Notes under the pieces: generated by a model
Told to the model about the DNA's origin: nothing
Databases searched by the model: none
Seen by the model: only the letters and a program-made list of their open reading frames with translations
IMG/VR virus record: IMGVR_UViG_2574180238_000002
DNA: 25,422 bases
From: a virus
Lineage: Duplodnaviria > Heunggongvirae > Uroviricota > Caudoviricetes
Direction: 5' to 3' (one strand)
Position numbers and translations under genes: made by a program
Shown here: positions 709 through 24,885 of the stretch, in pieces
How positions within the stretch are numbered: position 1 is the first letter of the stretch
How the letters are laid out: each line of letters starts with the position of its first letter

Positions 709-1485
709 TTACCATATCTGGCATGCGGTTTCGTTAAGAGGAACTCCGATCGCATTGCCAGCTTTTGTTTCATCAGGGTGTATCCATGCCATTTTCTTAT
801 CCAGATCGACCTGTGACCACTCAAGGTCTGTAACGTTGGAACGGCGAAGGCCTGTCGTGATTGCAAACATGACCACAGGGAAGAAGTGAGGAGCAATTTC
901 TGCAAACAGGCGCTTCGATTCCTCCTCTGTAAGCCATCTGATGCGTCCATTCTTAACGCGTGGTGTTGATATTTTGGGTGCCCTGTCAAGCCATCCCCAT
1001 TCAACAGCCATATTGAGAATGGCGCGAAGTATTGCCAGATGCCTCGTCTTCGTTCCTTTGCTTGCAAGCTTTGGTTTATACTCCGGCACCGGATTGCCAA
1101 GTCGCAAACACCTGTCCCGGCTCATCTCCCAGTTCAGGCGATGGCGGCGGTTTTCCATCCCATCTACCGCCTCCATTATTTTTTCTGTTGTTATGTCAGA
1201 GAGAATGGCTTCTCTGAAGTGCAACATCCAGAACGATATAATGCTCTTGTCATCATCAATGGACTTCTTATCCGATTTCTCACGCAGCCACCGTATGCAG
1301 GCTTCCTTGAATAGCTTTTTCGGTGATTCCCCGAGATTTTTTACTCTCCACGCTTCTGCTTTCAGACGATCGTGAAGTTCTTGCGCTTGCCTTTTGTCCG
1401 ATGTTTCAAGAGAGCGTCTAACTCTTGATCCATCTGGCGCGACGAAATCGCAGTGCCACGTGCCACCGCGTAGTTTGATTGACAT
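709..1485 (-). pseudogene. int: P22-family tyrosine integrase, C-terminally truncated by IS1
   Basis: 258 aa; N-terminal and core-binding region resemble lambdoid/P22-type Int (DKRQAQELHDRLKAEAWR...TGLRRSN). ORF stops inside the IS1 terminus at 709-713, so the catalytic H-x-x-R and Tyr region is missing. Strong RBS AGGAGG upstream of ATG at 1485. Confidence 0.8.
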
Positions 1486-4246: not shown

Positions 4247-4540
4247 TCAGTCATTACTGATAGCGCCATAGCGTGAGCGGTAATTACGCAGGCGCGGGTC
4301 AATTTCAGGGAAGTGGGTATATGTGGCTTTGCGGAATGGTCGGATTGATGTCTGGTAAATTCGCTCGCGTTCTTCTTTCTCTGCGAGCCATATACAATGG
4401 CGAAATTCCTTTTCCTCTTTCGTTTCCTGCGGTAGCGACATTATCCGGTCGTAGTTTTTTCTGAATTTATCCAGCACCTCCGATACGGAATTGCCGGAAC
4501 AGCGGCGCGGGTCATCCGCACTATACAGAGGCGCTGGCAT
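4247..4540 (-). CDS. hypothetical protein (uncertain)
   Basis: 97-aa ORF, charged composition, no clear SD; sits at the presumed deletion junction just upstream of the gp20-like gene. Confidence 0.3.
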   Translation of the reverse strand: MPAPLYSADDPRRCSGNSVSEVLDKFRKNYDRIMSLPQETKEEKEFRHCIWLAEKEERERIYQTSIRPFRKATYTHFPEIDPRLRNYRSRYGAISND

Positions 4541-4586
4541 TGGTGCTGGTATCGGATTGCTTGGCTCGTTGTTTTAAGGGGTAATC

Positions 4587-5993
4587 ATGGCTACTTGGCA
4601 AGGAACAAACGGCGGATTGTTGGCTGGTATCGGCGGCGTCAACTCAAACGCTCCGAGCGTAAATGACATCGGCAATACGCTTCAGCTTATCAGGCAGAAC
4701 AATGATATTGAGCGTTCAGGCGCTAACAATGTTGGACTGACGGCCTTGCAAGGTCTTTCAGGTATTGCGGGTGTTTTTCAGCAGGAAAAGCAGGCTCAGC
4801 GGCAGAAAGAATTTCAGCAGGCATACGCTAATGCTTATGCGTCTGGTGATCGCGGTGCTTTGCGTCAGTTGGCTACTCAATATCCAGACCAGATTGAATC
4901 CGTTCGTAAAGGCATGGGATTCATTGATGAAGACCAGCGTAATTCTATCGGTACATTAGCGGCTGGGGGGGGGGGTGGGGCATCGTCTCCAGAAGCAATG
5001 CAATCATGGCTGCAAAATAACGCCAAGGAACTGACTCGCGTCGGTGTTGACCCTAATAACGTTGCTCAGATGTATCAGCAGAATCCTTCAGGATTTGGTG
5101 AGTTTGTTGATCACCTTGGAATGGCTGCTCTTGGTCCGATTGATTACTTCAATGTTCAGGACAAGATGGCTGGTCGTGAGATTGATCGCGGAAAACTTGC
5201 AGAGACAATCCGCAGCAATCAGGCTGGTGAAGCACTTCAGGCGAGAGGGCAAAACCTTTCCTATCAGTCAGCAATGACTGGGCACAATATCGCAGCACAA
5301 CGCTTGGCCCTGGATCAGCAAGAGTTCGGGTTTAAGATGCAGCAAGCGCAGGAAAAGGCTCAGCAGTTGATTAGCGAAGCACCTAAGCTGTCAGTAAACA
5401 TGGAAAAAGGCATCGAGACGGCTGTAAACAATGCCACAGCATCATCAAACTCAGCCAATTCCATGAGTGCGCTTGCTCAACAGTTCAGAGCAGAAAAACC
5501 AACGACAGGTTTGTTCGGTAACGCACAGAACATGTTCGCAAAACTTACCGGAAGCGATACGACATTGCGTGATTTGCGCATTCGCCAAAATGCCCTTGTT
5601 AACAGTCAGGTTCTTAAATTCCTACCTCCCGGCCCAGCAACGGATAAAGACGTTGAGATCGTTCGACAGGGTGCGCCAACTGACATGGATAACCCTGAGA
5701 CGGTCGCAAGATGGCTTGATGCAATGGCAAACCTTGAGCGACGAAACGCGCAGTTTAATGAGTTTAAAGCTGAGTGGATGAGCGCGAATGGCAACCCTGG
5801 ACAATCGCGTAATGGCGGTCAGATATTGGGGTTGGATGTTAAAAAAGGTGAATCATTGGGGAGTGCCGTTAAGCGGTATATGTCATTGAATACTGACGCA
5901 GCGCCAGCACAAGATTCGATACCTTCAGGAGAACCACGGAATCAGGTTGGATCATATACCTCAAAATCAGGCATTCAATTTACGGTGGAATGA
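4587..5993 (+). CDS. P22 gp20-like ejection (DNA transfer) protein
   Basis: 468 aa with AAGGGG RBS. Size and position (before a ~610-aa protein, followed by an Mnt-like gene and tailspike) match the gp20-gp16 pair of P22-like phages. Assigned by synteny and size, not sequence recall. Confidence 0.7.
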
Positions 5994-7837
5994 TGAAAGT
6001 AACTGCAAACGGTAAGACATTTACCTTCCCTGATGGTACGAGCACGGAAGATATTGGATCTGCCATTGATGAGTATTTTGCTGGACAGTCTGTTCAGCAA
6101 CAAACTGTCAGCCAGGATAGCAATGAACCAGCACGTGAAGAACCATCATTGATGCAACAAGCTGGCGATTGGCTCACTGGTGGTCAAAGTGCAGGGCAAA
6201 TTGCTGAACAGGCTGGTCGTGGTCTGGTAAACATACCATTTGACGTATTGCAGGGTGGTGCAAGTCTGATTAATGCAATCAGCCAGGGGCTTGGTGGCCC
6301 AAAGGTTTTGGATGATGTTTATCGTCCAGTAGATCGACCAACAGACCCTTATGCGCAAGCTGGAGAAACAATTGGCGGGTATTTAGTTCCAGGAGCTGGA
6401 ACGGCAGGAAGCATGGCTATTGGATCACTGGCAGAGGCCGCAAATCAGAAAGGCGATTTCGCACAAAATGCAGCCAAAAATGCCGGAGTTAACCTTGCCG
6501 CTCAGGGTGTTCTTTCCGCAGCAGCAAAGGGAATAGAGCGTGGAATAACGGCTATAAAAGGTGATATTGCGCCAGAAGTGGCGAAGAAAATTGCCACATC
6601 AGAATCGATGGGCGTGACACCAATGACATCTGATGTTATCCCGCCGAAAAATGCTTTCACTCGTGGCCTTACTCAGGATGCCGAGGGTGCTTTGCTCGGG
6701 ACAGGCTCAAAGCGAGCGGAGCAATATGCAACGCGTAGTAAACTGGTAAGCAATTATTTTGACCGTTTTGGTGAGTATAACCCTGATGATGTGGTGAAAT
6801 CTCTGACCACCACGTTAAGGGGGAGGAAGGATGCCGCTGGCGCTGTTATCAATGACGTCACCAATAAAATGGGTAATGCCGCAGTTGATACCACAAATAC
6901 CATGAATGCTCTGAATACAGCGATCGCAAGACAGGAACGGCTTGGGACGTCTGCCAATCAAAGCCTGCTTACATCCTTGCGTAACCTACGTGAAGAATTA
7001 GCAAACCCTGCAACTGATTTGGATGTTACGTTTGATCTCTTGCGTCAGCACAGAACAGCATTTAGATCTAATGTTCAGGGAGATGCTATGGTCTTCCCCA
7101 ACCAGGCAAAAGCAGCTACCAATATGGTAGAGAATGCAATGTCAAAAGACCTTCGTAACGCAGTTGCTAAAAACCTCGGTGCATCAGACGCAGCAAAATA
7201 CCTTAAAGCAAATTCCGATTATGCAAACGTTTATAATAAGGTGCTTAATAAAAACATTGCTAACAAGCTCAACAAGGCAAGCAGTGAAGCCAGTCCTGAA
7301 CTTATAAATACCGTTGTATTAAGCAGAAAACCATCTGACGTGAAACGAATCTGGAGCGCACTGGATGATAAAGGGAAAGATGCTATGCGTGCAGCTTACG
7401 TCAGCAAAATAGCGGAAAAGGCCGGTGACTCTCCAGCCAAGTTCATCACTGAAGTTAATAAGCTGAAATCTCAGTCAGGCGGTGAAATTTACAACACTAT
7501 TTTTTCTGGAAAGCACATGAAAGAGCTTGATGCTCTTCATGAAGTTCTACAGCAAACAGCAAGGTCAGACACCGCAAATGTAGTAACTCAGACGGGGCAA
7601 TCGCAAGCCAACAGGATAAGGACGATTGGCGCAACTGCGACCCTTGGCGTATCAATGGGGCTTGAGGCTGGTTTTGGTGCAATGATGCGCTTGTATGAGT
7701 CCAAAGCAGCAAGGAATGCTCTCTTACGCCTGGCAAACACTAAAACTGGAACGCCAGCTTATGAAAGAGCGCTAAATAATGCTGCAAATGCGATACGCCC
7801 TATACTTTCAAGCCAAATTACAGCAGAACAGCAATAA
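5990..7837 (+). CDS. P22 gp16-like ejection (DNA transfer) protein
   Basis: 615 aa; ATGA overlap with the upstream gene; size matches P22 gp16 (~609 aa); synteny with mnt-like gene and tailspike. Confidence 0.7.
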
Positions 7838-7851
7838 AAGATAAGATATAA

Positions 7852-8337
7852 CTACCTGATATTACTGCTACTGTTGCATGTTACCGTGTTTCCAAATCCT
7901 GAATTGCAGTTTGTATATGTGTCAACGCGTGTTGGGTAAGGTTGAGTTATAACAGGCTGGCGCGCTTTTTGCTCGATCGCTTGCATTGTGTTTACAGCCT
8001 GATAATTCAATAAAGCCTGCTGGAATGCTTGGCTTTGCGCTATTTGTTGGGCTTGCTCTTGGCTTTGTAATTGAACATAAAGATTTTGAAGCTCAAGTCT
8101 TGCCTGTGCGTCACTTATCTTACCTTCATCAACACCTTGCCCGAGCATCTTTGCGGCAAGGACATACAGCTTAGGTGTTGGTGCAGACGCCATGCGTGAG
8201 TCGTTCTTCACACTGGCATCAAGGCAATTAGCCATATCGCTAAGCTTTTGATAGCGTTGTTCGCAACTTGCTTGATAGTCACTTACTTTTGCGCATCCAA
8301 CCAGAAGAAGCGGGATAATTAACAGTGATTTTTTCAT
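7852..8337 (-). CDS. lipoprotein in the sieA-equivalent position
   Basis: ATG at 8337 with AAGGAG RBS; MKKSLLIIPLLLVGC is a signal peptide with lipobox; Gln-rich C-terminal half. Confidence 0.6.
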   Translation of the reverse strand: MKKSLLIIPLLLVGCAKVSDYQASCEQRYQKLSDMANCLDASVKNDSRMASAPTPKLYVLAAKMLGQGVDEGKISDAQARLELQNLYVQLQSQEQAQQIAQSQAFQQALLNYQAVNTMQAIEQKARQPVITQPYPTRVDTYTNCNSGFGNTVTCNSSSNIR

Positions 8338-8407
8338 ATGGTTAACTCTCCTTAGTTTTTCACAGGATATCATGAAGGCAATGCCATTTTAGCCGGAAAC
8401 TAGATTT

Positions 8408-8674
8408 CTATGTTTCCTTTTTATTATTGCTATACATGGTCTTAAGCGTTTCAAAAACCATTTTCTTAACCATATCAGATTGTTGTTCTGCCATACGCTC
8501 TGCATCGTCAATGTAAACTGATGCAGAGCTTTGTTTAGCCAATGATTCTTCAATCGCTGCAATTATCTCTGAGTTCAGCGACCTGTTATTCATCTTCGCG
8601 CGCTGTTTAATTTTCGCGTGGAGTTCATGCGGAAGTCTCAAGTGAAACTGCGCCTCGTCGTATTTGCTGTACAT
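8408..8674 (-). CDS. mnt: Mnt-like ribbon-helix-helix repressor
   Basis: 88 aa from ATG at 8674; aligns by eye with remembered P22 Mnt (..NGRS.NSE...DAER.A..QS..VKKMVF.TLK..Y). Confidence 0.7.
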   Translation of the reverse strand: MYSKYDEAQFHLRLPHELHAKIKQRAKMNNRSLNSEIIAAIEESLAKQSSASVYIDDAERMAEQQSDMVKKMVFETLKTMYSNNKKET

Positions 8675-8795
8675 CCTTGATGCCTCACCAGTTGGGTGGA
8701 ATGGCATCGTAACCTACTGGATAAATACTCAATAGTACCATTTCTGTATGCAATCACATCATGGTTGCATCATATCATTCGTCTGGAGCAATGAA

Positions 8796-10613
8796 ATGTC
8801 AGATATCACCGCAAATGTTGTGGTAAGCATGCCTTCTCAACTCTTCACTATGGCTCGTTCTTTTAAAGCTGTAGCCAATGGCAAAATTTATATCGGTAAA
8901 ATTGACACTGACCCGGTAAATCCTGAAAACCAGATTCAGGTTTATGTGGAGAACGAAGACGGCTCTCACGTTCCTGTATCGCAGCCAATCATCATTAACG
9001 CTGCCGGATATCCTGTATATAACGGACAGATTGCCAAATTCGTAACTGTGCAAGGCCATTCTATGGCTGTTTATGATGCATATGGGGCGCAGCAGTTCTA
9101 TTTTCCTAATGCGTTGAAGTGTTCCCCTGACCAGGGAATTATCAGGTTAAAAGAAGAAATTGCGAAAGATGATGGAGAGAAATATATCGGAATATGCCCT
9201 GACGTTTCTACACTCAGAACAATTGAGCCATCATTCGTCGGGCAAAATATAACTGTTCGTGGATACTACTCTGACACACCCGGGCTTGGGGGAGGAACGT
9301 TTATAGCCTTTTCCAGTTCTGAAGCTGACGATGGTGTGAATATTTTTGTTACCCCTGGCGGTAAGCGATGGAAGAGAGCAGGAAGCCACATCGATATTCC
9401 GGTAGAGAACGGTGGCATGATGACATCATGTACGGCTGAGCAAAACAGTGAAGCCTTTGAACGCCTGACTGCATGCCTTCCATATGAAGGAGGTACGCTC
9501 AGACTCAATGGATTTTACGGTATTAAGTATGGCGCTATCGTGCCTCCACGTGTCACGCTGGAGGGGTGCGGTATGGATTCCTGTGGATTAATTAAAACAG
9601 GTAACGATATTAAAACCGTTCCGGATCGCATGTGGCAGGGTGTACCACACAGCTTCTCCAAAGACTTTATTGTTGCGGTAGATATGGATAGTGACACATC
9701 AGGTGATTTAAGCGGGACACAAACAAGAAGCACCAGAATAATTGGATTGAGTATTCTAAATACTGCGCCCAATCCTTGTGATTACGGGATATATAGCGCT
9801 ATCAGTTACAATGTGCGCCTTCAGGACCTGTATATTCATAGGGTGAAAACCGGTTATCGCACTAGTGATAGTTGGTTGCAGACATGGGAAAACATTACTA
9901 TTCAGGATGTCGTTACTGGAGTTAAAATCGAAGCAGGTGGAACCACATATAATTTAAACAATATTTATGTGAAAACATGTTCAGGTGTTGCATATGATTT
10001 TAATAACATTACATATAGCAGCCTGACTTGTTTGGCTGCTGACTTCGTTAATGGTACTGGCTATAAATTTAAAGATTGTACTGGAGTGAATCTATCTGGA
10101 TGCGGAAGCGAAGAAGGCACTGGTAAAATATTTGATATAAATGGTAGTCGAATTAACGTAACTGCATTTAGAGGGGTTAATCATCATGATGGAGGAGTTG
10201 AAGCTGTATCTCTGGAATCGTGTTTCATCTCATTGGTTTCATCTCATTTTTCTAGTTACTCTGGAGTCTCATCTAGCAAATACATATATCTTAATAATGC
10301 AACTGCAAATTTTAATGGTACGGTAATTCCCGACAACACCACTGATTCTATTAGATGGGGTAGTGCGCAGAGCAGGATCAACAAGGTTGATTCAGGCGGC
10401 ACCTATAGTATAACCGGAAACTCATCATGGACTGCATTATGCAGACTTGAGTCAGGATATATAACGGTTCTATCAGTATCACCACCCACGGGAGATACAA
10501 CTAATTTCCCGTTTGGCACCAAGTGGGAATTGCTTGGTCAGGTTTATACCGGACCGTGGAAGTGGACATACGTATCAACTGGTGAATGGAAGGTATCCGC
10601 AACTACCACGTAA
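8796..10613 (+). CDS. tailspike with P22-type head-binding N-terminus and divergent receptor-binding domain
   Basis: [11 protein letters not shown]...[35 protein letters not shown]...[11 protein letters not shown] matches the remembered P22 gp9 N-terminal ~110 aa; the rest does not resemble P22 gp9. GGAG RBS. Confidence 0.85.
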
Positions 10614-10640
10614 AAAAAAGGGGCTTTCAGCCCCTTTTTA
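10612..10640. terminator. bidirectional rho-independent terminator
   Basis: aaaaaaaa-ggggct-ttc-agcccc-ttttta: perfect 6-bp GC-rich stem flanked by A-run and T-run, between convergent tailspike and acyltransferase genes. Confidence 0.65.
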
Positions 10641-10641
10641 T

Positions 10642-11685
10642 CTAATATCTGAATTTGTTTGATATCTTTTTCCCAATATCCATTGCTGGTTTTTCTATCG
10701 CAATAAATGATATCAGTCCAGCAATAAGTGATAGTGCTATGCATAAAACTTGATTTAAGTACAGGTTTATATCAGGTAATAACCTGAATGTTATCTGCTG
10801 TATTAAAAAGCCCCACAAGTAAACGCCATATGACACATCATGTTTTATTCTTACTGATTTTATTATTTTTGTTGTTGATAAATACACGAAAAATGTACAT
10901 GCGCAAAAGTAAAAAAGCATATGCTTGAGTGTTGGGTCTGACACAAAATTATATAATATTGCAAATCCTATTGGTGCATGTGGTGAAATGTATATTTTGT
11001 CCTTGTTTATAGCATACAATGCGCCAAGAGCAAAGCATGGAGCCATTAAAAACACATCTGCATTATCGTTATTTATAAAAATTAATTTGTTCCATCCCAA
11101 TACTGGAAGCGCTATTATTGATAAGCATATGATGCTAGGTATTATTCTTCCTCTGCTCTGAGTTATCATGTAGCATGCTAGGAGCACGACATAAGATGCA
11201 ACTTCATATGGTATTGTCCATAAGGAACCATTAACTGATCTTTTATATATATTTTCCTCAAAAACACCAGGAAGAAAAAATTGCATATCCAAATATGAGC
11301 TTTTAAATAGATAGCTGTACGTCAGTGTATCTTTTAAATAAGATGTCATTGAGTGCGTTGTAAGTAATGGTCCAACAATGAATGTCGCGAATAATAAAAC
11401 AAAAATGAATGCGGGGAATATTCTAAAAAATCTAGATGAAATAAAGTGTGGTATGTTGCGCGTTGTTAATAAACTATTAGTTACAAGCATTCCACTAATA
11501 AAGAAAAATATTTTTACAGCAATGGAACCAGTATATGTAAATGTGAAAACAGACTGAACCGGCTCCTGGGCTCCATCAGAATTTGCAAGATAATATGAAT
11601 GGGCAAATATTACAGAAATTGCACAAAAAATACGTATTAAGTCAAGGTTATTGTTATCCCTTTTTAGCGCATCTTTGACCAACAT
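10642..11685 (-). CDS. integral-membrane acyltransferase family 3 protein (O-antigen acetyltransferase-like)
   Basis: 347 aa from first ATG; multiple hydrophobic segments; N-terminal motif ...LDLIRIFCAISVIFAHS typical of acyltransferase-3/Oac-type enzymes; visibly AT-rich; sits where P22-like phages carry O-antigen conversion genes. Confidence 0.7.
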   Translation of the reverse strand: MLVKDALKRDNNNLDLIRIFCAISVIFAHSYYLANSDGAQEPVQSVFTFTYTGSIAVKIFFFISGMLVTNSLLTTRNIPHFISSRFFRIFPAFIFVLLFATFIVGPLLTTHSMTSYLKDTLTYSYLFKSSYLDMQFFLPGVFEENIYKRSVNGSLWTIPYEVASYVVLLACYMITQSRGRIIPSIICLSIIALPVLGWNKLIFINNDNADVFLMAPCFALGALYAINKDKIYISPHAPIGFAILYNFVSDPTLKHMLFYFCACTFFVYLSTTKIIKSVRIKHDVSYGVYLWGFLIQQITFRLLPDINLYLNQVLCIALSLIAGLISFIAIEKPAMDIGKKISNKFRY

Positions 11686-12075
11686 AAAAATCACCTAACT
11701 GTTTATTTTGAAGAGCATTGTATCATCAGATAGCCGCACTTTCACTCCCATCAGATCACCGTCAGAAATTATCATAAGCGCCAGTTCATCATGTGCAATT
11801 GCGTGCAAACAAAATATTCACTGCAGAGAGATTAAGTAGATTGATTCTACTGGGTTGGCATGAGACAAAACTGAGACACAGAAAGCTTTGCACTGGATTG
11901 CAAGGCTTTGTGCTCTCCTGTGGATGTGTGTCTACATGTTTGAAGATTGTTGTGCCGTATTTGTGACATACGCATGACAACATCATGCATCAACTTTCTG
12001 TTTGTGCCATCAACTATAGCTTAGTGAATGCGGTTAATGCTTGCTAAAACAGATAGTTATGATTGGTGCTACAGA

Positions 12076-12121
12076 TTCGTAATGCGAAGGTCGTAGGTTC
12101 GACTCCTATTATCGGCACCAT
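12076..12121 (+). other. partial tRNA-Thr 3' segment (anticodon loop to CCA): central att site of the tandem array
   Basis: ATTCGTAATGCGAAGGTCGTAGGTTCGACTCCTATTATCGGCACCA matches the 3' 46 nt of tRNA-Thr(CGU) as remembered; upstream bases do not form the tRNA 5' half, so this is not an intact gene. Confidence 0.7.
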
Positions 12122-12726
12122 CAAGAAAATCAATAACTTAGCTTAACTTCTCTAAGAAATTGTATCTTCTGTTATCACTTACAAACGCCTATACGTTGTT
12201 ATGGGCTTTGGTAGTGTAACACGTATGGGCGAGTAGTTCCCAGGCTCAACCTCGTAACAAGTTCCTTTGAAGCTGGAAGACGTGCCACCGTCTCTAAACC
12301 TTCTACCAAAACTCTTAGCAAGATGTTCCACACCTGGCGCGGTGTCCAATGATGCTACACGTCGTGAGACGTTGCAGAGGATAAACAGGCTAAATGATGG
12401 GAAGAGTTTTAAGTGCAATAGTGGATCAAAGCCCACCTCTTCAAAACCTAACTTGATCGGGAAAGAATCAAGCTCTAGCACGGTTTCGTCCACCGGAGTA
12501 CAACGGGTGCCTGATAAGAGAAGAACTGCTAAGACTTCATAGCTTTTGTGAAAAAGCCCTTTTTAGTGGATACGCCTACGGCGCTTATTTTTTGGTATAA
12601 CCATCAAAGGCGCTTTATGGCTCCTATTGTCTTGAAAATGTATCTTTACTTGTATTGTGTTTTATGCGTAGTCTCCCTGTGTAGTATGTAACTTGTTAAT
12701 TTTCATATGAATACAGAGGCAACACG

Positions 12727-12879
12727 ATGAAAAACATTGCAGCTATAAAACGTAATAACCGCAAGATTCACGCTCGTAAGTTCCTGTCTACGCCAGAAGG
12801 AAAAGCCTGGCTAGAGCGTAAACAGAGAGAGAACGAAGAAAGAAAACTCCTTAGTGAGTTGAAATGGCTTAAGGATTGA
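12727..12879 (+). CDS. small basic protein (50 aa), uncertain
   Basis: MKNIAAIKRNNRKIHARKFLSTPEGKAWLERKQRENEERKLLSELKWLKD; not in the ORF track (below its length cutoff); followed by a long hairpin. Confidence 0.3.
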   Translation: MKNIAAIKRNNRKIHARKFLSTPEGKAWLERKQRENEERKLLSELKWLKD

Positions 12880-13429
12880 ATCACCAGTAGGCGCATAACA
12901 CATCCAGCGATCAAAGATGTGTTTATGCGCCTGATAGTGAAATTATTAAAGTTTTTTAGTTAATGTAGCCATTGCATGAACGATGATCGCTAGTGAATCG
13001 ATTTTATCTCGAGGGGTAAAATAGATGAGGTATATGATGGTAACAATTACAGCTAAAGTAATTGTGGTTCTGCAGGTTTTTAAAATGGATAAGATAAAGC
13101 GCATAGATACCCCCTATTGATTTAACAACAATAAGGTATCATTTATTTTTTATTGCATGCAATGTGCAAATTTTCACATATAATAGCTTACTATTCACTT
13201 TGCATGGTGTCAACAAGATGATGTGTTGTTTTGTTTGATTTGTTCAAGATAATATTTCATTTTCTCATCTATATAACTTGTGTTTTAGATAATTTCACTA
13301 ATTGTAAAAGTTACGTATTGCTTAATAGCTGCCTTTTTATCTGAAATCGGCGCAAACGTGATCAATGTTTAACGCGAAGATCAGCGGCGTCAGGTCCACG
13401 CAGCGACAATTCTCAAATATCAGGAGGCA

Positions 13430-13981
13430 TTACGCTTCCTGCTCTTTCTTGATACGTTGCACCGTCTGTGTGCTGACACTGAAATCTTTTGCTACGCTCC
13501 GAATTGATCCACCATTCGCGAGAGCGGCAACAATTCCCGCTCGATCAATTGCTTTTCCATTACCACGTTTTGCTATACGTCCAGCGGCCTTAGCTGCGGC
13601 GATCCCCTCACGTTGCCGCTCAAGCATCATTTCACGTTCCATTTGTGCCACTGCTGCAAGCACTGTGAGCATCATATTCCCTGCGGGAGAGTTCTTCCCT
13701 GTCTTAAAGTCTTCTTTATGGAAATGCACAGACACGCCGCGCTCTGTTAATTGCTCAACCGTTGCCAGAAGGTCGGCTGTATTACGGCAAAGGCGATCAA
13801 TACTGTGAACATGCACAACATCACCTTCCCGCACATAGTTCATCATTGCCTCAAACTGTGGGCGCTGAGTGTTCTTGCCTGACGCTTTATCTTCAAAGAC
13901 TTTATCAAGAGTTACTCCAGCTAATTGACGGTCTGTGTTTTGTTGCACAGTCGATACCCTAATGTATCCAATATTAGCCAT
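13430..13981 (-). CDS. serine recombinase (resolvase/invertase family)
   Basis: MANIGYIRVSTVQQ... with the catalytic Ser context, DRL.R motif and C-terminal HTH (GGSIRSVAKDFSVSTQTVQRIKK); ~183 aa, typical of small resolvases/invertases; RBS 9 nt upstream of ATG at 13981. Confidence 0.8.
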   Translation of the reverse strand: MANIGYIRVSTVQQNTDRQLAGVTLDKVFEDKASGKNTQRPQFEAMMNYVREGDVVHVHSIDRLCRNTADLLATVEQLTERGVSVHFHKEDFKTGKNSPAGNMMLTVLAAVAQMEREMMLERQREGIAAAKAAGRIAKRGNGKAIDRAGIVAALANGGSIRSVAKDFSVSTQTVQRIKKEQEA

Positions 13982-14507
13982 TTTCATTTTCCTTCTGTGT
14001 TGATTTGTGTGTAGTGATTATTGATCGTGTTGATTAGGTGTGTAAAGGACTTTTTTCACTACGAAATTCGAAGGTTTTTAGTGTGGTGATTTAGCCTGCT
14101 TTATCACTACACGTCTTGCATGAGAATCATGTAGTTACATTTTGGTAAAATTAGCAAGCTATTAAATAGTGTGTTTATTTTGAAAAAATAATTTTTTGTT
14201 GCATTAAAGGAAACTTGTTCGACAAATAATAGATTGATTTTTAATCAACAATTTCTGATAGTGCTCTGTAAGCCGTATTACACAAGGCTTTGCGAAAGTG
14301 ATGTAAAAGTGAAGAAAGCTAACATTGCACTTTTTAAGCTACTTTTCATTGGATTTTTACGTAGGAATTACACAGGGATTAATCATCAATTACATTGAAT
14401 TTAAGCCTGTTTTAGATGTTTAATTTTGGTAGCAAGAAACACTTTTAGAAGATCATTGCACAGATGTTATGTGATAAATGGATGTAACGGTAGGTCACTG
14501 TGAACTA

Positions 14508-14644
14508 CCCCCACAGAATTCTGTTATCCTTAACTTTTAAAGAAATATGCACCCTAACAGAAAACTGTTACCCCAACCCTAACAGAATTATGTTAGATAC
14601 CCCCACAGAAAACTGTTAGCCACCCCTACAGAATTTTGTTACCT
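14508..14644. repeat. array of five ~23-bp iterons, each a TAACAG-N4-CTGTTA palindrome preceded by a C-run
   Basis: Cores at 14513-14526, 14557-14570, 14582-14595, 14605-14618, 14628-14641; four of the five start 23 bp apart. Confidence 0.65.
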
Positions 14645-14756
14645 ATTAGATCAACTATCAAACTACAATTAAATTATCTTTTATAAATTCTTTTATCTTT
14701 AAAGAATAATTAAGTGATACCCGTTAGGGAGTCTTCGACTATCCCTTAATCTATTG

Positions 14757-15033
14757 GCATTCGCCAGAACCTTGCACAAGTTAGAGTGTTAGTCGTTAGA
14801 CTGCTTGTCATAACACATAGTTTTTGTTTGTTGATGTTAGTTAGTAGATCTATGTTCGCTAATGCCGCTCACAACGAATATGTAATCTACTATGTGCAAA
14901 TAGCCTACGGCTTGCGTAAGGCTAAATAGTCTATGCGCTGTGCGCTTCAATAGTTCCATTGATGAGGCTTACGCCAATCTAACGATCATCAATCATCTAA
15001 AATAAATTTCTTGTGCAATGTTCTGGCGAATGC
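14757..15033. repeat. 24-bp inverted-repeat pair flanking a 229-bp segment
   Basis: gcattcgccagaaccttgcacaag (14757-14780) versus reverse complement of cttgtgcaatgttctggcgaatgc (15010-15033): 23/24 identity. Confidence 0.55.
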
Positions 15034-15339
15034 AATTAGAGTAGCGTTACCCCTTTGGGGATGCTAACGCATAACTATAGATCAACCATCAAACAGACAA
15101 AAAAGAAAAATATGGTTTAAAGATGTTAGGTAGTAGATGAGATTCTACCGCTTAAATCAAGCCGTAGGCGAGCTAAACAGCCTCTACATAAGGGAATGTA
15201 TTGTATTTATCAAAACCTCGTCAGAGGGCGTTTTAGAGCGTTTTAGAGAATAAGGAAGAATAGGAGCACTCTTAAGAGCACGAATTGCTAAGAAAAATTA
15301 TAACACACTGAAAATGATCAATATTTTTATGGCTAGGGG

Positions 15340-15368
15340 TTGACAAAAGCTTTTAGTCGTGGTAAAGT
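15340..15368 (+). promoter_or_regulatory. candidate sigma70 promoter for the 15492-17800 operon
   Basis: TTGACA (15340-15345), 17-bp spacer, TAAAGT (15363-15368). Confidence 0.4.
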
Positions 15369-15491
15369 AATATTAGGGACAGAAAACATTCTTATCCTCT
15401 AAGTAATTAAACCAATGCACCGCACTTTGAAGCCCAACAAGGCTTGCAAGGTGTTTTTTCTTTTAACCAAATAGAATAAGGAGGCTAATTA

Positions 15492-15668
15492 ATGAAATAT
15501 TTTACTCCACAGGATGTAGTTGAAGCCTGGAAACGTGGTGAGATTAATCGTTTTAAAGTAAGGATGAACAGGAACACAGCGCGACGCTGTGGTTATCCAG
15601 AGCGTGAAAAATGCTTTGACGATGCACTAAAAATTATTGATGAACTGCGTAAGGCAGAGAAAGAATAA
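15492..15668 (+). CDS. small protein (58 aa), unknown function
   Basis: Strong SD AAGGAGG upstream of ATG; MKYFTPQDVVEAWKRGEINRFKV...; first gene of a co-directional operon. Confidence 0.5.
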   Translation: MKYFTPQDVVEAWKRGEINRFKVRMNRNTARRCGYPEREKCFDDALKIIDELRKAEKE

Positions 15669-15689
15669 TAACAGGAGAAGGAGAAAACT

Positions 15690-15860
15690 ATGAGCGAAAC
15701 TACAGAAAAGAAAAGACAACCACGCACTTGCTTTCATATTCCTGATGAAGTATTTCAGGTGTTGTTTAAAGAAGCCAGAAGTAAACGTATCACTGTTACA
15801 GATTACATTCTTGATATGTTGAAAAGAGAGGCTGAAACACTCTCAAACAAAAGCAAGTGA
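15690..15860 (+). CDS. small ribbon-helix-helix-like DNA-binding protein (56 aa)
   Basis: SD AGGAGAAGGAG; sequence RTCFHIPDEVFQVLFKEARSKRITVTDYILDMLKRE fits a beta-strand then two helices as in CopG/Arc/ParG-type RHH proteins (by-eye secondary-structure pattern). Confidence 0.5.
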   Translation: MSETTEKKRQPRTCFHIPDEVFQVLFKEARSKRITVTDYILDMLKREAETLSNKSK

Positions 15861-15913
15861 TTTTTATCACCATAGTAGCGCCGTAGAGCGTGATTACATC
15901 AAGGAGATTTTTA

Positions 15914-16483
15914 ATGATTAATGAAGAACAATTTGTAAAAGTTCCTATGTGGATTCTAAAAATAAGCCAAGTAAACGGACATAAATTTACAGATAGTGCT
16001 AAAAACCTTTACTGCTATCTGAGAGGGTTTGATCGTGCATTTCCCTCTTACGCTAAGATAGGCGATGTTTTTGGCATAACACCAAGAGCAGCAGAAGAAA
16101 GGGTTAAGAAATTGCTCGAAATGGGATTAATTATAAAAGATGCACGACCAGGAAGCTCTAACCTTTATCGAGTGCTTGATATTCCAAAAGGAGAATCATC
16201 ACTACCTGATCCTTCTGAGAAAGAAGACGAATCTAATGAAATATTGAATGTTTCCGAAATCATCGTTGAAGAAGAAACACAAGAGCCAGAGTTCCCTGAG
16301 CGGCCCGAAATTTTTACTTGGCTTCTTTCCCTTGATAAGAAGAAACCACCGCACGAAGAAACAGAAGATTTTGTAAAACGAGCATTAGATTCAAAGAATA
16401 TCTATCTTTGTGAAAATGATTTTGACTCTTTGATAATTGATCTCAAAAGTGAGAGCACAATATATGATTCACTACCCTTCTAA
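15914..16483 (+). CDS. predicted winged-helix DNA-binding protein with acidic C-terminal tail
   Basis: ATG at 15914 with AAGGAG RBS; N-terminal ~90 aa has a wHTH-like pattern (..AKIGDVFGITPRAAEERVKKLLEMGLI..); C-terminal half highly acidic. Confidence 0.55.
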   Translation: MINEEQFVKVPMWILKISQVNGHKFTDSAKNLYCYLRGFDRAFPSYAKIGDVFGITPRAAEERVKKLLEMGLIIKDARPGSSNLYRVLDIPKGESSLPDPSEKEDESNEILNVSEIIVEEETQEPEFPERPEIFTWLLSLDKKKPPHEETEDFVKRALDSKNIYLCENDFDSLIIDLKSESTIYDSLPF

Positions 16484-16492
16484 GGAGAATAA

Positions 16493-16750
16493 ATGACTTA
16501 TAACATCACTATAGGAAACAAAACTATTGAAATAACTGAAAGCGGATACAACATTTTAAAAGCTATTTTGGACATAGAGTTTTCACCACCGACAGTGGTT
16601 AGCTTTTGTAGTTTAGGCGGCTACAGCGCACAACACGTAAATCATTTTACATCGTTCGGTGTGCTGGATTATGAAGGGATTAACAGCACTACATTTCGTC
16701 TTTTGAAATTAAACAAAGATTTTGAATTGTTTCTCACAAACAATCAATAA
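16493..16750 (+). CDS. hypothetical protein (85 aa)
   Basis: AAGGAG RBS; same-strand operon context. Confidence 0.5.
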   Translation: MTYNITIGNKTIEITESGYNILKAILDIEFSPPTVVSFCSLGGYSAQHVNHFTSFGVLDYEGINSTTFRLLKLNKDFELFLTNNQ

Positions 16751-16847
16751 CAACAGATCGGGCAATACATATGGCAAATGCATTTATGGCGATATTCATC
16801 GTAACAATGGCGTCCAGTTTTTATAATCCACATAAAAAGAGGGAAAA

Positions 16848-17231
16848 ATGGGAAGAAAGAAAAAGAACAACTTAAAACGTATTGAAAAAAACAGTAATTT
16901 CAATTCAAAAAGACAACGTCCACCGACACACACCAATAACGAAATTCCAGGGGAAGAGATAATCTTTATTCTTGAAACAGAATCCCCTGAATTAAGTGAT
17001 GAAGAATTAGAAATAATCCAATCAATGCCAGGCGTTTACTTTCGCCCAAGAACAAGAAAACAAACTATCATTTCTGATGGCACTCTGAAACGTTGGCAGC
17101 TTTTAGGGTTTAGCTCCTATCATCATTTTTTGGGATTTAACGCTTTCAATAATTGTGTAGGTGGTGCATCGGAAGTCGATCTGATGGCTCATTTAGAAGA
17201 TACATTAGCTTCTAACAAACGTTCTAACTAA
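16848..17231 (+). CDS. hypothetical protein with basic N-terminus and acidic middle (127 aa)
   Basis: RBS AGAGGG; N-terminal Lys/Arg-rich stretch followed by an acidic segment. Confidence 0.5.
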   Translation: MGRKKKNNLKRIEKNSNFNSKRQRPPTHTNNEIPGEEIIFILETESPELSDEELEIIQSMPGVYFRPRTRKQTIISDGTLKRWQLLGFSSYHHFLGFNAFNNCVGGASEVDLMAHLEDTLASNKRSN

Positions 17232-17246
17232 TAAAATGATGGGTGT

Positions 17247-17492
17247 ATGTATAAGCGCCCAATGAAAATATTCAAAAAAGGAAAAATAATGATTGGCTAT
17301 ATTCAAGAAACACAATTATTTCAGATGATCCTGTCTGATGCAAAAAACTATGCAGAGTTAATTCGGCTGGCAAAAGAAACAGAAGACTACGAAGCATTAG
17401 AGCGTTACCGTGATGAAGTGCTGACGCTCAAGACACCTTTTAACATCGTATTGAATATGATTAATGATGCATTACAAGGAGAATACGCATAA
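17247..17492 (+). CDS. hypothetical protein (81 aa; alternative start at 17289)
   Basis: ORF with better RBS (AAGGA) before the internal Met at 17289; stop overlaps the next start (ATAATG). Confidence 0.45.
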   Translation: MYKRPMKIFKKGKIMIGYIQETQLFQMILSDAKNYAELIRLAKETEDYEALERYRDEVLTLKTPFNIVLNMINDALQGEYA

Positions 17493-17800
17493 TGGAAGAA
17501 GATATTAGCAATGCAATGGAACAACTTTTAGAACTGACTATCTCACTACAAACAAGAATAAATCAAGCCTATTCAGATTTATGCGATTACACGCTCTCTC
17601 AATGCGTTATTAGCTTAATGAAGGTGAATGTAAGCCTTGACGATTTTATCTCTCTTGGGAGCGATTTAGAGCTATCAGAGGACGATGCAAAACAGTGTAA
17701 TCAAATCATCACAGACATCGCCACCACGTTAAAGGTTGCAAGTGAAGAGATTCAGCAATTAGTAGATGATTTAGCAAAAAGTGCTATTTTCTCTAAATGA
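17492..17800 (+). CDS. strongly acidic small protein (102 aa)
   Basis: AAGGAG RBS; about 19 Asp/Glu versus about 6 Lys/Arg by count. Confidence 0.5.
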   Translation: MEEDISNAMEQLLELTISLQTRINQAYSDLCDYTLSQCVISLMKVNVSLDDFISLGSDLELSEDDAKQCNQIITDIATTLKVASEEIQQLVDDLAKSAIFSK

Positions 17801-18642
17801 TAATGAAAATTATTTGCATTTATAATGATTTTGTTATATAATAATTTTAGGGGTAGATAAAAAGATTTTAGTTGGTGTTAATCCTTCTACTGTCATAAAT
17901 CCCTGCATATGGAAGGTGATAGCCTCAAAGGTTGAGTGGCATTAACCTCTAACAAATATTACCTTCCATCTCTCAAGAAGTTTTAGAATAATCATAACTC
18001 CCTCTTTGATTGTTGATTGTTTCTACGTTGTGTTGATGAATGTTGTTAGGCATTGTGCTTAATTTTGATAAAAGCGGGTAGGTGTTATCTCCTTGCCCTT
18101 CCCGCTCTTATTTTTCATCTATGCTTATCCTAAAGCTCCTTATTTTGTCAGAAAACATTAAAGAGCCTTACACTGATAGTTATATTTTATAACTATTTAC
18201 TAACATCATTAAACTATTATTTAATGACAGAAGTTAGTAACAGAATAATCTATTAAGTTGTTGTCAAAAACAATCATCTGCATAGCGTTAGCCGCAAGCA
18301 GAGAGAGTTTAGCTAAGAATGGTGCAATAAACTTTGGAAATATTGATAGCAAAACGGGTTTTATAGAATGCGGATCTATAAGCTTTGGTTGTAAAAACGA
18401 TTTTCTGAAACGGTAGATTACTGTTGGTGTAGTTAATCATTATTAAAAATTTAATCTGTGAGTAGATTGGAATAGTGATTCCTTAAAATCTGACTGGTGC
18501 ATCCACACCATGAAAGATAGCGGTTGGCCACCGCGCCCCGAATAGATATTCCTGATTGATTCCGCATGTTTTCCTAAGAGCATGTTTTCAGGAGTATCTA
18601 TTCACCCTTTAAGCATATCATCAAGTATATTTAAAAAGTGTA

Positions 18643-18671
18643 TTTGCTGATATGTTTAATCCTCTTATAGT
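18643..18671 (+). promoter_or_regulatory. candidate sigma70 promoter for the 18785-23366 operon
   Basis: TTTGCT (18643-18648), 17-bp spacer, TATAGT (18666-18671); weak -35, good -10. Confidence 0.3.
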
Positions 18672-18784
18672 TTAACTTATCAATTATGTAATTGCCCGCA
18701 CGTTAAAGCCCCTTTGCTGGTCAGAATTAACCTCTTACGGCATTGGGGCTTTTTATTTGTCTGGCACTAACAGGAACATTATTT

Positions 18785-18982
18785 ATGAAACAAGAAATGA
18801 TTATCAGCAAAGACGGGGAAACGATGATTGTTAGTGATGAAAACCTCATTAAGGTTGCCGCACTGTTGGGAGTTACTCCCGAAAGTCTTCGTTCTACCAC
18901 TGCTCAATTATTTAAATCGGCTGATGCGGTTAGTCTTGCTGATGCCCTTAAATCTAAAATTAAACAACTGAAAGGAAAATAA
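18785..18982 (+). CDS. hypothetical protein (65 aa)
   Basis: AGGA RBS before ATG at 18785; first gene of the second operon. Confidence 0.45.
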   Translation: MKQEMIISKDGETMIVSDENLIKVAALLGVTPESLRSTTAQLFKSADAVSLADALKSKIKQLKGK

Positions 18983-18986
18983 TCTT

Positions 18987-19370
18987 ATGGCTAACCCATA
19001 TGGAAAATTAAAAGCAGTGAATGCGGATAACTCCCGTTCACGCTGTAAGGTAGTAGCTTACGCTGCTGATCCAGTGCTGCAAGATCGCCTCGTCAAACTG
19101 GCTTCACCTCTCACTGACGATCTTATTGTCGGGGCTTTGCTGAAAGCCGATGGCACCAAAGCAACAACCGCATCTGATATTGCTCACGTAGTAGTTGAAC
19201 CGGCTTATGAAGGACAGGAAAGCGTAGTGGTTGCACATCCTACTTTCGTTATTCTGGCTGAAGATGGGATTGAATTTAACAGCATGGAAAAGGCAAGTGT
19301 TATTGCAAAACTGCAATCTCTCGGCTTTGTAATTGCTGGTTATGAAGAACTTGCGATCCCTACGACTTAA
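18987..19370 (+). CDS. hypothetical protein (127 aa)
   Basis: AAGGA RBS; tightly spaced with neighbours (4-14 nt intergenic). Confidence 0.55.
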   Translation: MANPYGKLKAVNADNSRSRCKVVAYAADPVLQDRLVKLASPLTDDLIVGALLKADGTKATTASDIAHVVVEPAYEGQESVVVAHPTFVILAEDGIEFNSMEKASVIAKLQSLGFVIAGYEELAIPTT

Positions 19371-19384
19371 CAAGGAAAATAATA

Positions 19385-20416
19385 ATGAATGATTTATCAA
19401 CATATTTTGGCGTTAATACTGCGGTAGTAACTCCATTTGCTTATGAGAATGCACTTAATACCCTGATTACTAATCTCGATCTGTTCGATGTGCAATATCA
19501 TACAGAAAACAGCATTCTTCTTACCGACCTGATTGATCAGTTTGTGCAGGTAGCTGGGGAAACCTCGCCTTACGCTCAAAGCGACTGGAACGCCTCTAAA
19601 CGTCAGGAATGGTCAAACAAACTTTTCCAGATGAAACACGTCGGCAGTATTAACGCTGTTACTTCTCGTGACCTGGAACAATACAGCCGCCAATATCCAA
19701 ACCGTTCTGATGCTATGCTGGTAGCGGTTAATGATTTCTCTGAGGCTCATTACCGTTCACACGCAAACCGTGTTGAAGTGGATCTGATTACCGCGCTGCT
19801 GGGCCTGAAAGTTGAATCTGAATATGCCGGACAAGGTGATCTCGACTTCCTCGACGGTCAGGCTAAAACCACGGTACCCGCTATCGACTTTGCATCGACT
19901 ACTGTTAACCCGTTCCTTGCTATTCGTAAAGCGGTGCGCTTACAGAGTGAAAAGCTGGGGTCTGGTCTTGCTGCAAAGCGAACTGGTGTAATTATCTTTG
20001 CTGCTGGCACTGCTGCTGATGGTTTGTCATCTAACCCGCTGATCAGTGACATGGTGAAATATGCAGGCGATGCGAGTGCTACGGCCCTGTTTACCCGTAT
20101 GGTTGATTCTAACCCAGCCTATGACTCTTTCCAGATTGGTGGGATCACTGTTATTGATGTGTCAATGTTTCCTGAGATTGTTGCTCACATCGGAGAGAAC
20201 GGTTTCGCAATTGTTCCGGTAATGGATAAAGCGGCACAGTGTTACCAGCTTCATAGCGGCGTTGGTGTGCGTCATGCTGAGTTAGGTCAAGATGCCGTGT
20301 TGCATCACCAATATCTAATCAAGGATGAATTCCAATTCCCATCTGTGGTTACTGAGACATCTTATCTGCCAGTAAACAACATTCCGCAAGCTATCATCTT
20401 CGGATCTGCTGCGTAA
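19385..20416 (+). CDS. hypothetical protein (343 aa), function unknown
   Basis: AAGGA RBS; no signal peptide or recognisable catalytic motif by eye. Confidence 0.55.
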   Translation: MNDLSTYFGVNTAVVTPFAYENALNTLITNLDLFDVQYHTENSILLTDLIDQFVQVAGETSPYAQSDWNASKRQEWSNKLFQMKHVGSINAVTSRDLEQYSRQYPNRSDAMLVAVNDFSEAHYRSHANRVEVDLITALLGLKVESEYAGQGDLDFLDGQAKTTVPAIDFASTTVNPFLAIRKAVRLQSEKLGSGLAAKRTGVIIFAAGTAADGLSSNPLISDMVKYAGDASATALFTRMVDSNPAYDSFQIGGITVIDVSMFPEIVAHIGENGFAIVPVMDKAAQCYQLHSGVGVRHAELGQDAVLHHQYLIKDEFQFPSVVTETSYLPVNNIPQAIIFGSAA

Positions 20417-20567
20417 TAAAGCGTTAATAGACGATTCCCCATCGGGGCAATAAGGGTAAAGGGATTAACTAACCTGTAGGCGCAAATACAGTAACGAATC
20501 TCTTTGCCCTTTTTGTTTTTCTACTGTCTACAAACCCAAATAAAAATATATATGTGAGAGAAAACCA

Positions 20568-20765
20568 ATGAATACAGAAAACCCACAATCCTTTATTCTT
20601 AAAGCTGTAAAAGAACTGGCAGCTATTAGCGAGGAATCAGTTATAAACACATCGGCGCTTTGCCGCCTTTTAGAAATTGATGCAAATAATGTGCGCCAGC
20701 GTGTCTTTCAGACTGGGTGCAGCACTTTCGAAGCAATTCAATACTATTGCTCTAAAAAACAATAA
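20568..20765 (+). CDS. hypothetical small protein (65 aa)
   Basis: ORF in operon context; weak RBS. Confidence 0.4.
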   Translation: MNTENPQSFILKAVKELAAISEESVINTSALCRLLEIDANNVRQRVFQTGCSTFEAIQYYCSKKQ

Positions 20766-20799
20766 TAAACAACAATCATAATACAGGGAAACAATTAGC

Positions 20800-22641
20800 A
20801 TGTTAGAACTTAACGTCAGCCGCTTATCAAACGTTGTCACCTTCCAGGTTGATCGACCATCATTAGAGAAAGCAAAAGCAGAAGTAGAAAAACTTCGTAA
20901 ACAAATGGCGGCGGTGAAAGATATAGAATTGCGTGTTAAGACACATAAACAATCAACTTCTAAAGCAAAAAAAGACGTAGACGATATTGCTAAAAAGCAA
21001 GCACAGGCAGATAAAGCCAATGCTAAAGCACAATTAGCCGCTCAACGTGTAGTTGCAAGAGAACAAAAAGCCCTGGCAGCACGCAAAGAGAAGGCAGACT
21101 TAAAACTGTTAGACGTTGGATCAAGCATTAGTGCATTGCACCGCCTTTCTGTAGCGGAACAATATAAAGCTATTGCACAGGCTAGAGAAATTGCCCTCCA
21201 ATATGAAAGAGGAGCTATTAGTCTGGCACGTATGAATAGCCAAATGAAACGCCTACAACAGCAACAACGTAAGATTAATGGCAATCGTAACGCTCACGCT
21301 AAAGCCTATGCACCTGTTAAGGGTAGCGGGAGTATTGGCGGCGGTGCTGCGGCTGTTATGCTGGGTGGCTTAGGCGCTGGCGCTACGTATATGGCTATGA
21401 GCAAAGCCTCTGAATTTGTTACTAACAGCTTTGCGAATGCTGAAACGCTGGGTGAATTGTATAGCCGTGCGAAGCTGGGCGGTGTAGACGTTAACCAGAT
21501 GAACAATATTGAGCAATGGGCCTACAAAAACGGCGTTGATTCAATGATGGGGGATCAAGGTAAACGTAAGTATCTCGATCAGATGAAAGATGTGCGTGAG
21601 CGTGCAACCAAAAGCTATGATGAGGCTGAATATGTAGTCGATAAAAAAACAGGCAAAGGTGAATGGAAGGGCGGCGATAGCGGCATCAATACTTTAATGA
21701 ATGAAGGATTCTTAACTAAAAAGGATCTAAAAGACTTTGCTGATAATCCGGCTGGTCTGGTTAGTAAAGCAGTTCAGGGAATGGTGAAGAAAGGCTATTC
21801 AGATGCACAAATCGGTAGTCGTCTGGAAGATCTGGCTGATGATTTGATGCTCACCTCTAAATACTGGACACGCTCCGCTAAAGAAGTGGAACAATCAGCA
21901 CGAGAACAACTAGAATCAGGGCGCTGGGTAACACAGGCACAACAGGAAAGCGTTATTAAATTCCGTGAACTGAATAATGCACTTAGTGGGCTTTCTGACT
22001 CACAAGGGATCGCCTTTGTTGATGGCTTTATGAAATCTCTTGATCCGAAAGTGATTGAAGAGTTTAAAAAGAGCATGGTTGCAATGCTGCCAATGTTTAC
22101 CAAATTAGGCGAGGCTATCGGCGGATTGGTTAACGCCGTAATGAAAACAATCAACTGGCTGATGAAAAACGACGAGAAGACGGAAGCTATTCAGAAGAAT
22201 TTAGGGGATGCACCGCCACTATCTAACGAAGGAATGAAGCAGAATCTTTCTAATCTCACTCCTGATCAATATAAAGGCGCTGGCACCGGAACAACTAAGC
22301 CAGATAACAGCAATTCCCTGGTTAACACTATTAAAAGCTGGTTTATGCCAGAAGAAACGGTAGGTGGGGCGCAGGCTGTAAATCAATACAGTCTCGAAGG
22401 ACAAAACATTGCAAATCTGAAACAGAGTGCAGCACAACAAGCTTTCAAGGCTCCTTCTTACACCTTTGCACCTGTTATTAACTTCAATCCAGAATTACAA
22501 GTAAATGCAGAAGTGCCGCTAACTATCGAATCAGACACCGGACGATTGAGCGAATTTATCGACTTCAAATCAAAGGCATCCTCCGCTGAGTTTAGCAAGC
22601 TATTAACGCTGGGTGTTATGTCAGGCGGGTCAACCTATTAA
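20800..22641 (+). CDS. large coiled-coil protein with Gly-rich hydrophobic segment (613 aa)
   Basis: AGGGA RBS; N-terminal ~170 aa Lys/Ala/Gln-rich heptad-like sequence; GSGSIGGGAAAVMLGGLGAGATYMAM resembles a glycine-zipper membrane segment. Confidence 0.6.
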   Translation: MLELNVSRLSNVVTFQVDRPSLEKAKAEVEKLRKQMAAVKDIELRVKTHKQSTSKAKKDVDDIAKKQAQADKANAKAQLAAQRVVAREQKALAARKEKADLKLLDVGSSISALHRLSVAEQYKAIAQAREIALQYERGAISLARMNSQMKRLQQQQRKINGNRNAHAKAYAPVKGSGSIGGGAAAVMLGGLGAGATYMAMSKASEFVTNSFANAETLGELYSRAKLGGVDVNQMNNIEQWAYKNGVDSMMGDQGKRKYLDQMKDVRERATKSYDEAEYVVDKKTGKGEWKGGDSGINTLMNEGFLTKKDLKDFADNPAGLVSKAVQGMVKKGYSDAQIGSRLEDLADDLMLTSKYWTRSAKEVEQSAREQLESGRWVTQAQQESVIKFRELNNALSGLSDSQGIAFVDGFMKSLDPKVIEEFKKSMVAMLPMFTKLGEAIGGLVNAVMKTINWLMKNDEKTEAIQKNLGDAPPLSNEGMKQNLSNLTPDQYKGAGTGTTKPDNSNSLVNTIKSWFMPEETVGGAQAVNQYSLEGQNIANLKQSAAQQAFKAPSYTFAPVINFNPELQVNAEVPLTIESDTGRLSEFIDFKSKASSAEFSKLLTLGVMSGGSTY

Positions 22642-22688
22642 TCATCACTGTGGGGCTGTTTAGCCCCCTTAAATAAGGATTACAAATT

Positions 22689-23366: not shown

Positions 23367-23446
23367 CCTTAAACGCCTATGAAACGCTCTGTAACGAGAT
23401 AATCATAAAAGAGGCATCAGCCTATATTGAAGCCTCTTTATTACGT

Positions 23447-24724: not shown

Positions 24725-24823
24725 AAAATCTCCGGCTAAAGTGTCGGAGCGTTTGTAATGTGAAAATTGATTGTGACGCATAGAAAATGATGATTTTTCT
24801 ATAAGATTCAATCAATTAGTAAT

Positions 24824-24885
24824 GGTCGTAGGTGATGGCATTAACACGAGATTAATCGAGTGTTTTACTCCTATTATCGGCACCA
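24824..24885 (+). other. degenerate pseudo-tRNA / right att of the second element
   Basis: 19-nt exact match to the tRNA-Thr 3' end (ACTCCTATTATCGGCACCA, 24867-24885), plus an upstream 10-nt tRNA-like piece (GGTCGTAGGT, 24824-24833) separated by non-tRNA sequence. Confidence 0.6.

Follow-up and report, generated by a model that had tools for sequence, protein, structure and literature searches.

A G11-T-G4 tract in the gp20-like gene of a decayed P22/Sf6-like prophage is very probably a base-calling or consensus error

The window, the whole stretch of 25,422 nt that was analysed, is taken from contig JJLY01000008.1 of the 2014 draft assembly GCA_000627945.1. It includes a prophage remnant in which IS1 is followed by a 258-aa integrase fragment, xis and the early-left genes as far as abc2, and the last 57 nt of gene 7. 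Beyond the gene 7 stub lie gene 20, gene 16, a 161-aa gene, mnt, the tailspike gene, and an acyltransferase gene. The principal features of the remnant are:

195-698: IS1, abutting the integrase fragment
709-1485, minus strand: integrase fragment of 258 aa (385 aa in intact relatives), cut by IS1
4247-4540, minus strand: abc2 (anti-RecBCD), full length, abutting the deletion junction
4530-4540, strand not applicable: deletion junction with an 11-nt microhomology, GGCGCTGGCAT (direct repeats)
4587-5993, plus strand: gene for a P22 gp20/Sf6 gp12-like DNA-ejection protein of 468 aa, WP_032228300.1 as deposited (Pfam PF16928, homologues)
5990-7837, plus strand: gene for a P22 gp16-like ejection protein, downstream of gene 20 (PF26808, Phage_P22_gp16)

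The deletion junction joins the start of abc2, on its left, to the last 57 nt of gene 7 and a short spacer before gene 20, on its right. Everything from abc1 through most of gene 7 is missing, including all immunity, replication, lysis, terminase, portal, coat, and tail genes. The same junction is present in two other assemblies, Logan SRR1186755 and JJMA, and has no full-length match among 5,426 complete E. coli genomes. The Abc2 protein was considered as a marker of the deletion and rejected, as it is a normal full-length protein of many intact prophages. Two other E. coli contigs (L028 and L033) carry different P22-like remnants, with abc2 beside inverted gp16 or gp10-like gene fragments, which suggests that deletions or rearrangements around abc2 recur.

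The open reading frame at 4587-5993 has a precomputed Pfam match to PF16928 (Inj_translocase), and homologous entries carry the annotation Sf6 gene 12, “similar to phage P22 gene 20 protein.” Its length falls within the range of about 430-470 aa, a gp16 homologue lies downstream, and the last 57 nt of gene 7 lie upstream. The protein shares 99% identity with hundreds of E. coli prophage proteins, including annotated phage DNA ejection proteins. It differs from the P22 gp20/Sf6 gp12 family in two respects: the deposited protein reads GGGG at residues 128-131, its sole difference in sequence, and the gene 7 partner is deleted from this remnant. No relative was found in the PDB by sequence, which leaves residues 128-131 without a structural placement. 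The gene is an ordinary gp20-family member in an ordinary decayed P22/Sf6-like prophage.

The GGGG residues are encoded by a G-rich tract that is unique in the window:

4965-4980, plus strand: G11-T-G4 tract, GGGGGGGGGGGTGGGG, in the deposited sequence; the inferred true sequence is GGCGCTCGTCTTGCGG

The deposited letters at the tract are gcggctGGGGGGGGGGGTGGGGcatcg, with G11 at 4965-4975, T at 4976, and G4 at 4977-4980. In the frame of the gene, the tract reads GGG GGG GGG GGT GGG GCA, spans residues 127-132, and encodes Gly5. It is the only G or C homopolymer of at least 6 nt and contains the only 16-mer with more than 10 G in the window, where G runs of at least 11 nt are expected by chance about 0.001 times given the base composition. 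A sequence-only reading of this DNA had described the tract as a G11-T-G4 run inside a gp20-like gene that codes for a Gly stretch, and the coordinates, the in-frame translation, and the Pfam match bear this out for the deposited record. The doubt concerns the correctness of the deposited sequence, not the accuracy of that description of it.

Comparison with near-identical alleles indicates how the tract differs from its relatives. Seven unrelated contigs encode the next-best protein match (P0002), which is the window protein with ARLA in place of GGGG at residues 128-131 and is otherwise identical. Their alleles match the deposited gene at 1399 of 1407 nt. All eight differences are changes of C or T to G, they fall within 12 nt, and they are accompanied by no insertion or deletion:

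4967-4978, plus strand: eight assembly-private substitutions, 4967 C>G, 4969 C>G, 4970 T>G, 4971 C>G, 4973 T>G, 4974 C>G, 4975 T>G, and 4978 C>G (relative to the identical alleles and the same-clone assemblies)

Their net effect is to convert GGCGCTCGTCTTGCGG, encoding G-A-R-L-A-A, into GGGGGGGGGGGTGGGG; T4976, the lone non-G base left in the tract, is the ancestral base. In one relative (L013), the 4,582 nt corresponding to 4530-9111 are identical to the window except at the eight tract positions. The computed chance that eight independent substitutions would fall in one 12-nt span of these 4,582 nt is about 1e-17, and the requirement that all eight go to G contributes a further factor of about 1.5e-4. 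Eight clustered substitutions with no indel thus point to one event that altered letters and not length. The tract originated by substitution, the opposite of slipped-strand expansion.

The ancestral sequence is strongly conserved. In an alignment, GCTGGCGCACGCCTTGCG occupies the tract site at equal length in Sf6, VSe13, HF4s, IME10, and three E. coli prophages. The pattern GGCGC(A/T)CG(C/T)CTTGCG, encoding ARLA, is found at the site in 15 of 15 DNA relatives, and ARLA is present in all 119 other top protein matches. Homologues vary synonymously at codon 128 (GCA or GCT) and codon 129 (CGC or CGT) while Ala-Arg is kept, and this variation around invariant amino acids argues that the replaced residues are under purifying selection. 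The GGGG protein (WP_032228300.1, UniRef100_UPI00050A4B95) is a singleton from one contig among 5.8 to about 15 billion proteins. Searches of viral, genome, and metagenome contig collections with the exact tract or a length-tolerant pattern gave no match. The region occurs in 794 complete E. coli genomes; the closest of them reaches 97.4% identity over 351 nt, and none therefore has the tract.

Two further assemblies allow the deposited sequence to be compared within a single clone. One is the sister draft JJMA01000010.1 (GCA_000627905.1), which has an adjacent accession; the other is a set of Logan contigs, assembled independently from the raw reads of run SRR1186755. An exact look-up of the tailspike allele returned only JJLY itself and two Logan contigs. 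Logan contig SRR1186755_128 aligns to window positions 4452-12104 (7.7 kb) with no gaps and exactly eight mismatches, which are the tract positions, where the Logan contig has the ancestral bases. This contig also has the clone’s private deletion junction and private tailspike allele, and SRR1186755 appears to come from the same strain or clone as JJLY. JJMA01000010.1, which likewise has the private prophage deletion junction, aligns to window positions 642-21685 (21 kb) with no gaps and 10 mismatches. Eight of these are the tract positions, at which JJMA is ancestral; at the remaining two, 6380 and 8865, JJMA is the odd one out. These are three assemblies of one clone, and the tract is in JJLY only. 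A literature search found no papers citing JJLY or GCA_000627945.

Most of the few other differences between the assemblies share the character of those in the tract. The regions compared were window positions 642-21685 plus coordinates 10800-32641 for JJMA, and 4452-12104 plus 12092-31772 for Logan, covering about 31 kb of the clone. Where the JJLY sequence was followed beyond the window (contig L037) and compared with Logan SRR1186755_235 and JJMA, four more differences appeared, at 25330, 26551, 26584, and 26591. The last three lie beyond the window (L037 positions 15752, 15785, and 15792), and 25330 lies inside it, as do 6380 and 8865. At all four positions, A is the base in Logan and in three outgroups, and C is the base in one or both drafts. 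On the minus strand, each corresponds to a T>G change directly after GGCTGGCG, GGAGG, GAGG, and GGCGGGG, respectively. The JJMA-specific change at 6380 is a T>G after GGCGGG. At 6380, 8865, and 25330, the deviating draft is JJMA, and the window keeps the ancestral base. Five of the six differences outside the tract (6380, 25330, 26551, 26584, and 26591) are therefore T>G after at least two G. Across the roughly 31 kb, all 14 inter-assembly differences are specific to a draft and deviate from the state in Logan, the outgroups, or the majority; 13 are changes to G directly after at least two G on one strand. No ordinary SNP separates JJLY, JJMA, and Logan in the compared regions. The recurrence of this error type at five of the six further draft-specific differences suggests a systematic, genome-wide over-calling of G in the 2014 submission batch. 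No second substitution cluster like that of the tract occurs elsewhere in the window.

The sequence immediately before the tract contains a candidate trigger:

4961-4968, plus strand: true-sequence motif GGCTGGCG, with two GGC triplets, at or just before the first miscall; the window reads GGCTGGGG there

In the true sequence, GCGGCTGGCG, the two GGC triplets occupy 4961-4963 and 4965-4967, the latter ending at the first changed base, 4967. The 8-mer GGCTGGCG is also the one that precedes the T>G error at 25330 in the sister draft, on the minus strand. In published Illumina data, runs of consecutive miscalls begin at most 10 nt after GGC, are favoured when the triplet is preceded by T or C and followed by G or T, and copy the preceding bases, about 50-60% of them the base one back and about 20% the base two back (Nakamura et al., 2011; PMC3141275). 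At the tract, GGC lies within those 10 nt upstream of the first miscall, and six of the eight changes copy a G one or two bases back; the other two need a G three back. The tract resembles the GGC-triggered errors, and the systematic GGT>GGG miscall, in being length-preserving, in starting at or just after GGC in a T-GGC-G context, and in running consecutively over about 12 nt while mostly copying a preceding G. Changes of the T>G-after-GG type also occur at five other sites in the two sister drafts. However, with eight changes fixed in a consensus, the tract is far more extreme than the usual single-base error. The pattern fits Illumina-type G over-calling after GGC motifs.

A second published artefact shares one feature with the tract. 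In two-colour chemistry, a fading signal makes T and C read as G (the fastp paper, PMC6129281), and only C and T have become G here, as would be the case for a dark cluster called G. The two-colour artefact arises at the tails of reads, but this tract sits within a contig and is flanked by correct sequence. Four-colour data are also more likely than two-colour data for a draft of 2014. An inverted repeat as the trigger is unsupported because no hairpin stood out beyond shuffled controls at the tract region on either strand, in the ancestral or the deposited sequence (z-scores of -0.34 to 0.74), which leaves GGC as the remaining candidate.

Since two other same-clone assemblies and every homologue show ordinary, repeat-free DNA of equal length at this site, the G11-T-G4 tract is very probably an error of base calling or consensus building that became fixed in a single 2014 draft (GCA_000627945.1, JJLY01000008.1). 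In the strain itself, the site almost certainly reads GGCGCTCGTCTTGCGG, encoding the conserved G-A-R-L-A-A. In the proposed course of events, the tandem GGC in GCGGCTGGCG would cause dephasing or signal loss in cycle-based (Illumina-type) sequencing, so that C and T after GGC would be called G for about 12 cycles, changing letters but not length. Reads with these miscalls would then have won the consensus at the tract. The physical cause, dephasing after GGC or signal loss, is proposed from the pattern of miscalls and may be either. The gene is annotated as intact, with Gly5, because the error keeps the reading frame. Several points count against an artefact. Eight miscalls in one region winning a consensus would be an unusually severe error, and reads from the opposite direction should normally rescue the consensus because GGC-type errors affect one read direction only. 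The two changes that need a G three bases back and the lack of a second such cluster in the window also weigh on this side.

These points leave some room for a tract that is real and private to the JJLY isolate. Such a tract would have arisen as a one-step complex mutation, with eight transversions in 12 nt, that is functionless in a decaying prophage without selection. A remnant that has lost the genes from abc1 to gene 7 would tolerate a damaging ARLA>GGGG replacement, and the Logan run and JJMA, being the same clone as JJLY, are possibly sister isolates and not the same one. Such a mutation is nonetheless improbable. To our knowledge, no mutational process in E. coli turns C and T into G over 12 nt without a change in length. 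Template switching was rejected as a mechanism, there being no poly-C or poly-G donor in the window. Diversity-generating retroelements were rejected as well, since they are specific to adenine and it is C and T that have changed here. Moreover, only differences of the G-over-call type part JJLY from JJMA and Logan, and the tract would have to be the sole real difference among them, yet one with the signature of an error. If the tract were nevertheless real in JJLY alone, a single event would have made a hypermutable G11 and G-quadruplex motif in a prophage gene, offering a direct view of the birth of a contingency tract by a non-templated or damage-driven process.

The sequence-only reading had proposed that the tract is a slipped-strand site for phase-variable expression of the ejection protein, or else an assembly artefact. 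Its premise holds for the deposited sequence: the G11 run, in frame within 4587-5993, is longer than the length at which homopolymers slip frequently, and the computed effect of losing or gaining one G is a frameshift with a stop after aa 148 (-1) or aa 144 (+1), truncating the protein at about residue 144-148. In this, the tract resembles the homopolymer contingency loci of bacteria and some phages, in which a G run of at least 9 nt in an open reading frame changes length by 1 nt and truncates the product. It differs from them in its substitution origin, in its defective host element, and in having neither conservation nor length polymorphism. No relative has a repeat at the orthologous site, where the 15 DNA relatives and the 119 closest proteins are non-homopolymeric and of the same length; no tract-length variant was found in the viral, genome, and metagenome contigs or in the 794 complete E. 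coli genomes with the region; and the same-clone assemblies have no repeat at all. The element also lacks the means to use a switch. Judged from its gene content, with abc1 to gene 7 deleted (late-regulation genes among the losses) and the integrase cut by IS1, the prophage is predicted to be unable to make a virion, and the native late promoter region is presumably deleted too. Switching of gp20, even with a real tract, would have no virion to act on because the structural genes are deleted. A genuine contingency locus that turns the ejection protein on and off is therefore extremely improbable, while the artefact option raised alongside it is strongly supported by the two other assemblies of the clone that lack the tract. 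Hardly more can be said for a functional G-quadruplex motif or a selected flexible poly-Gly linker in gp20, which has next to no likelihood. The 16-mer formally fits the G4 consensus (G3-N1-G3-N1-G3-N1-G3) when read directly, and it encodes Gly5; against this, the tract is in one assembly only and missing from the same clone elsewhere, displaces the invariant ARLA motif, and lies in DNA whose folding is unremarkable by the z-scores given above. An engineered Gly linker was also rejected in view of the wild isolate, the defective prophage, and the odd codon choice.

With the tract read as a sequencing error, its relevance lies mainly in database quality, and it offers no new biology. The singleton WP_032228300.1 (UniRef100_UPI00050A4B95) most probably owes its existence to that error, and the two sister 2014 drafts hold further G over-call errors after GG and GGC contexts. 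Scans for phase variation that rely on homopolymers should compare each candidate with near-identical alleles first. Length-preserving changes that all go to one base relative to close relatives are the signature of a base-calling error and not of slippage.

Downstream of the gp16-like gene, 8748-11694 holds the gene for a tailspike called as 605 aa, with a P22-type head-binding domain and a beta-helix. Next to it, on the opposite strand, comes a gene for a 347-aa Acyl_transf_3 protein. A tailspike with an O-antigen acetyltransferase is an Sf6-like arrangement. The tailspike allele is nearly private: it carries private substitutions and is found in this clone only. At 9112-9124, around codon 124 of the tailspike gene, five of 13 nt are substituted compared with the four closest relatives, four of them in a row (ACGA>GTTC). 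These substitutions are real because JJLY, JJMA, and Logan all have them. Recombination between the head-binding and receptor-binding domains usually has its boundary at about this codon, and the cluster is probably the trace of a mosaic junction.

Beside the prophage, 12075-25000 is occupied by a second mobile island. Many E. coli share it at 97-99% identity, and their records place a tRNA-Thr nearby; ARAGORN found no tRNA inside the window. Its features include:

13430-13987, minus strand: resolvase
343-aa protein whose homologues match Phage_cap_E
20800-22641: 613-aa protein
22689-23366: Dit-like “baseplate” protein, too widespread to serve for extending the contig (a search with it did not recover JJLY)
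about 23447-24724, minus strand: integrase, 425 aa

The second island resembles a capsid-forming, PICI-type phage satellite.
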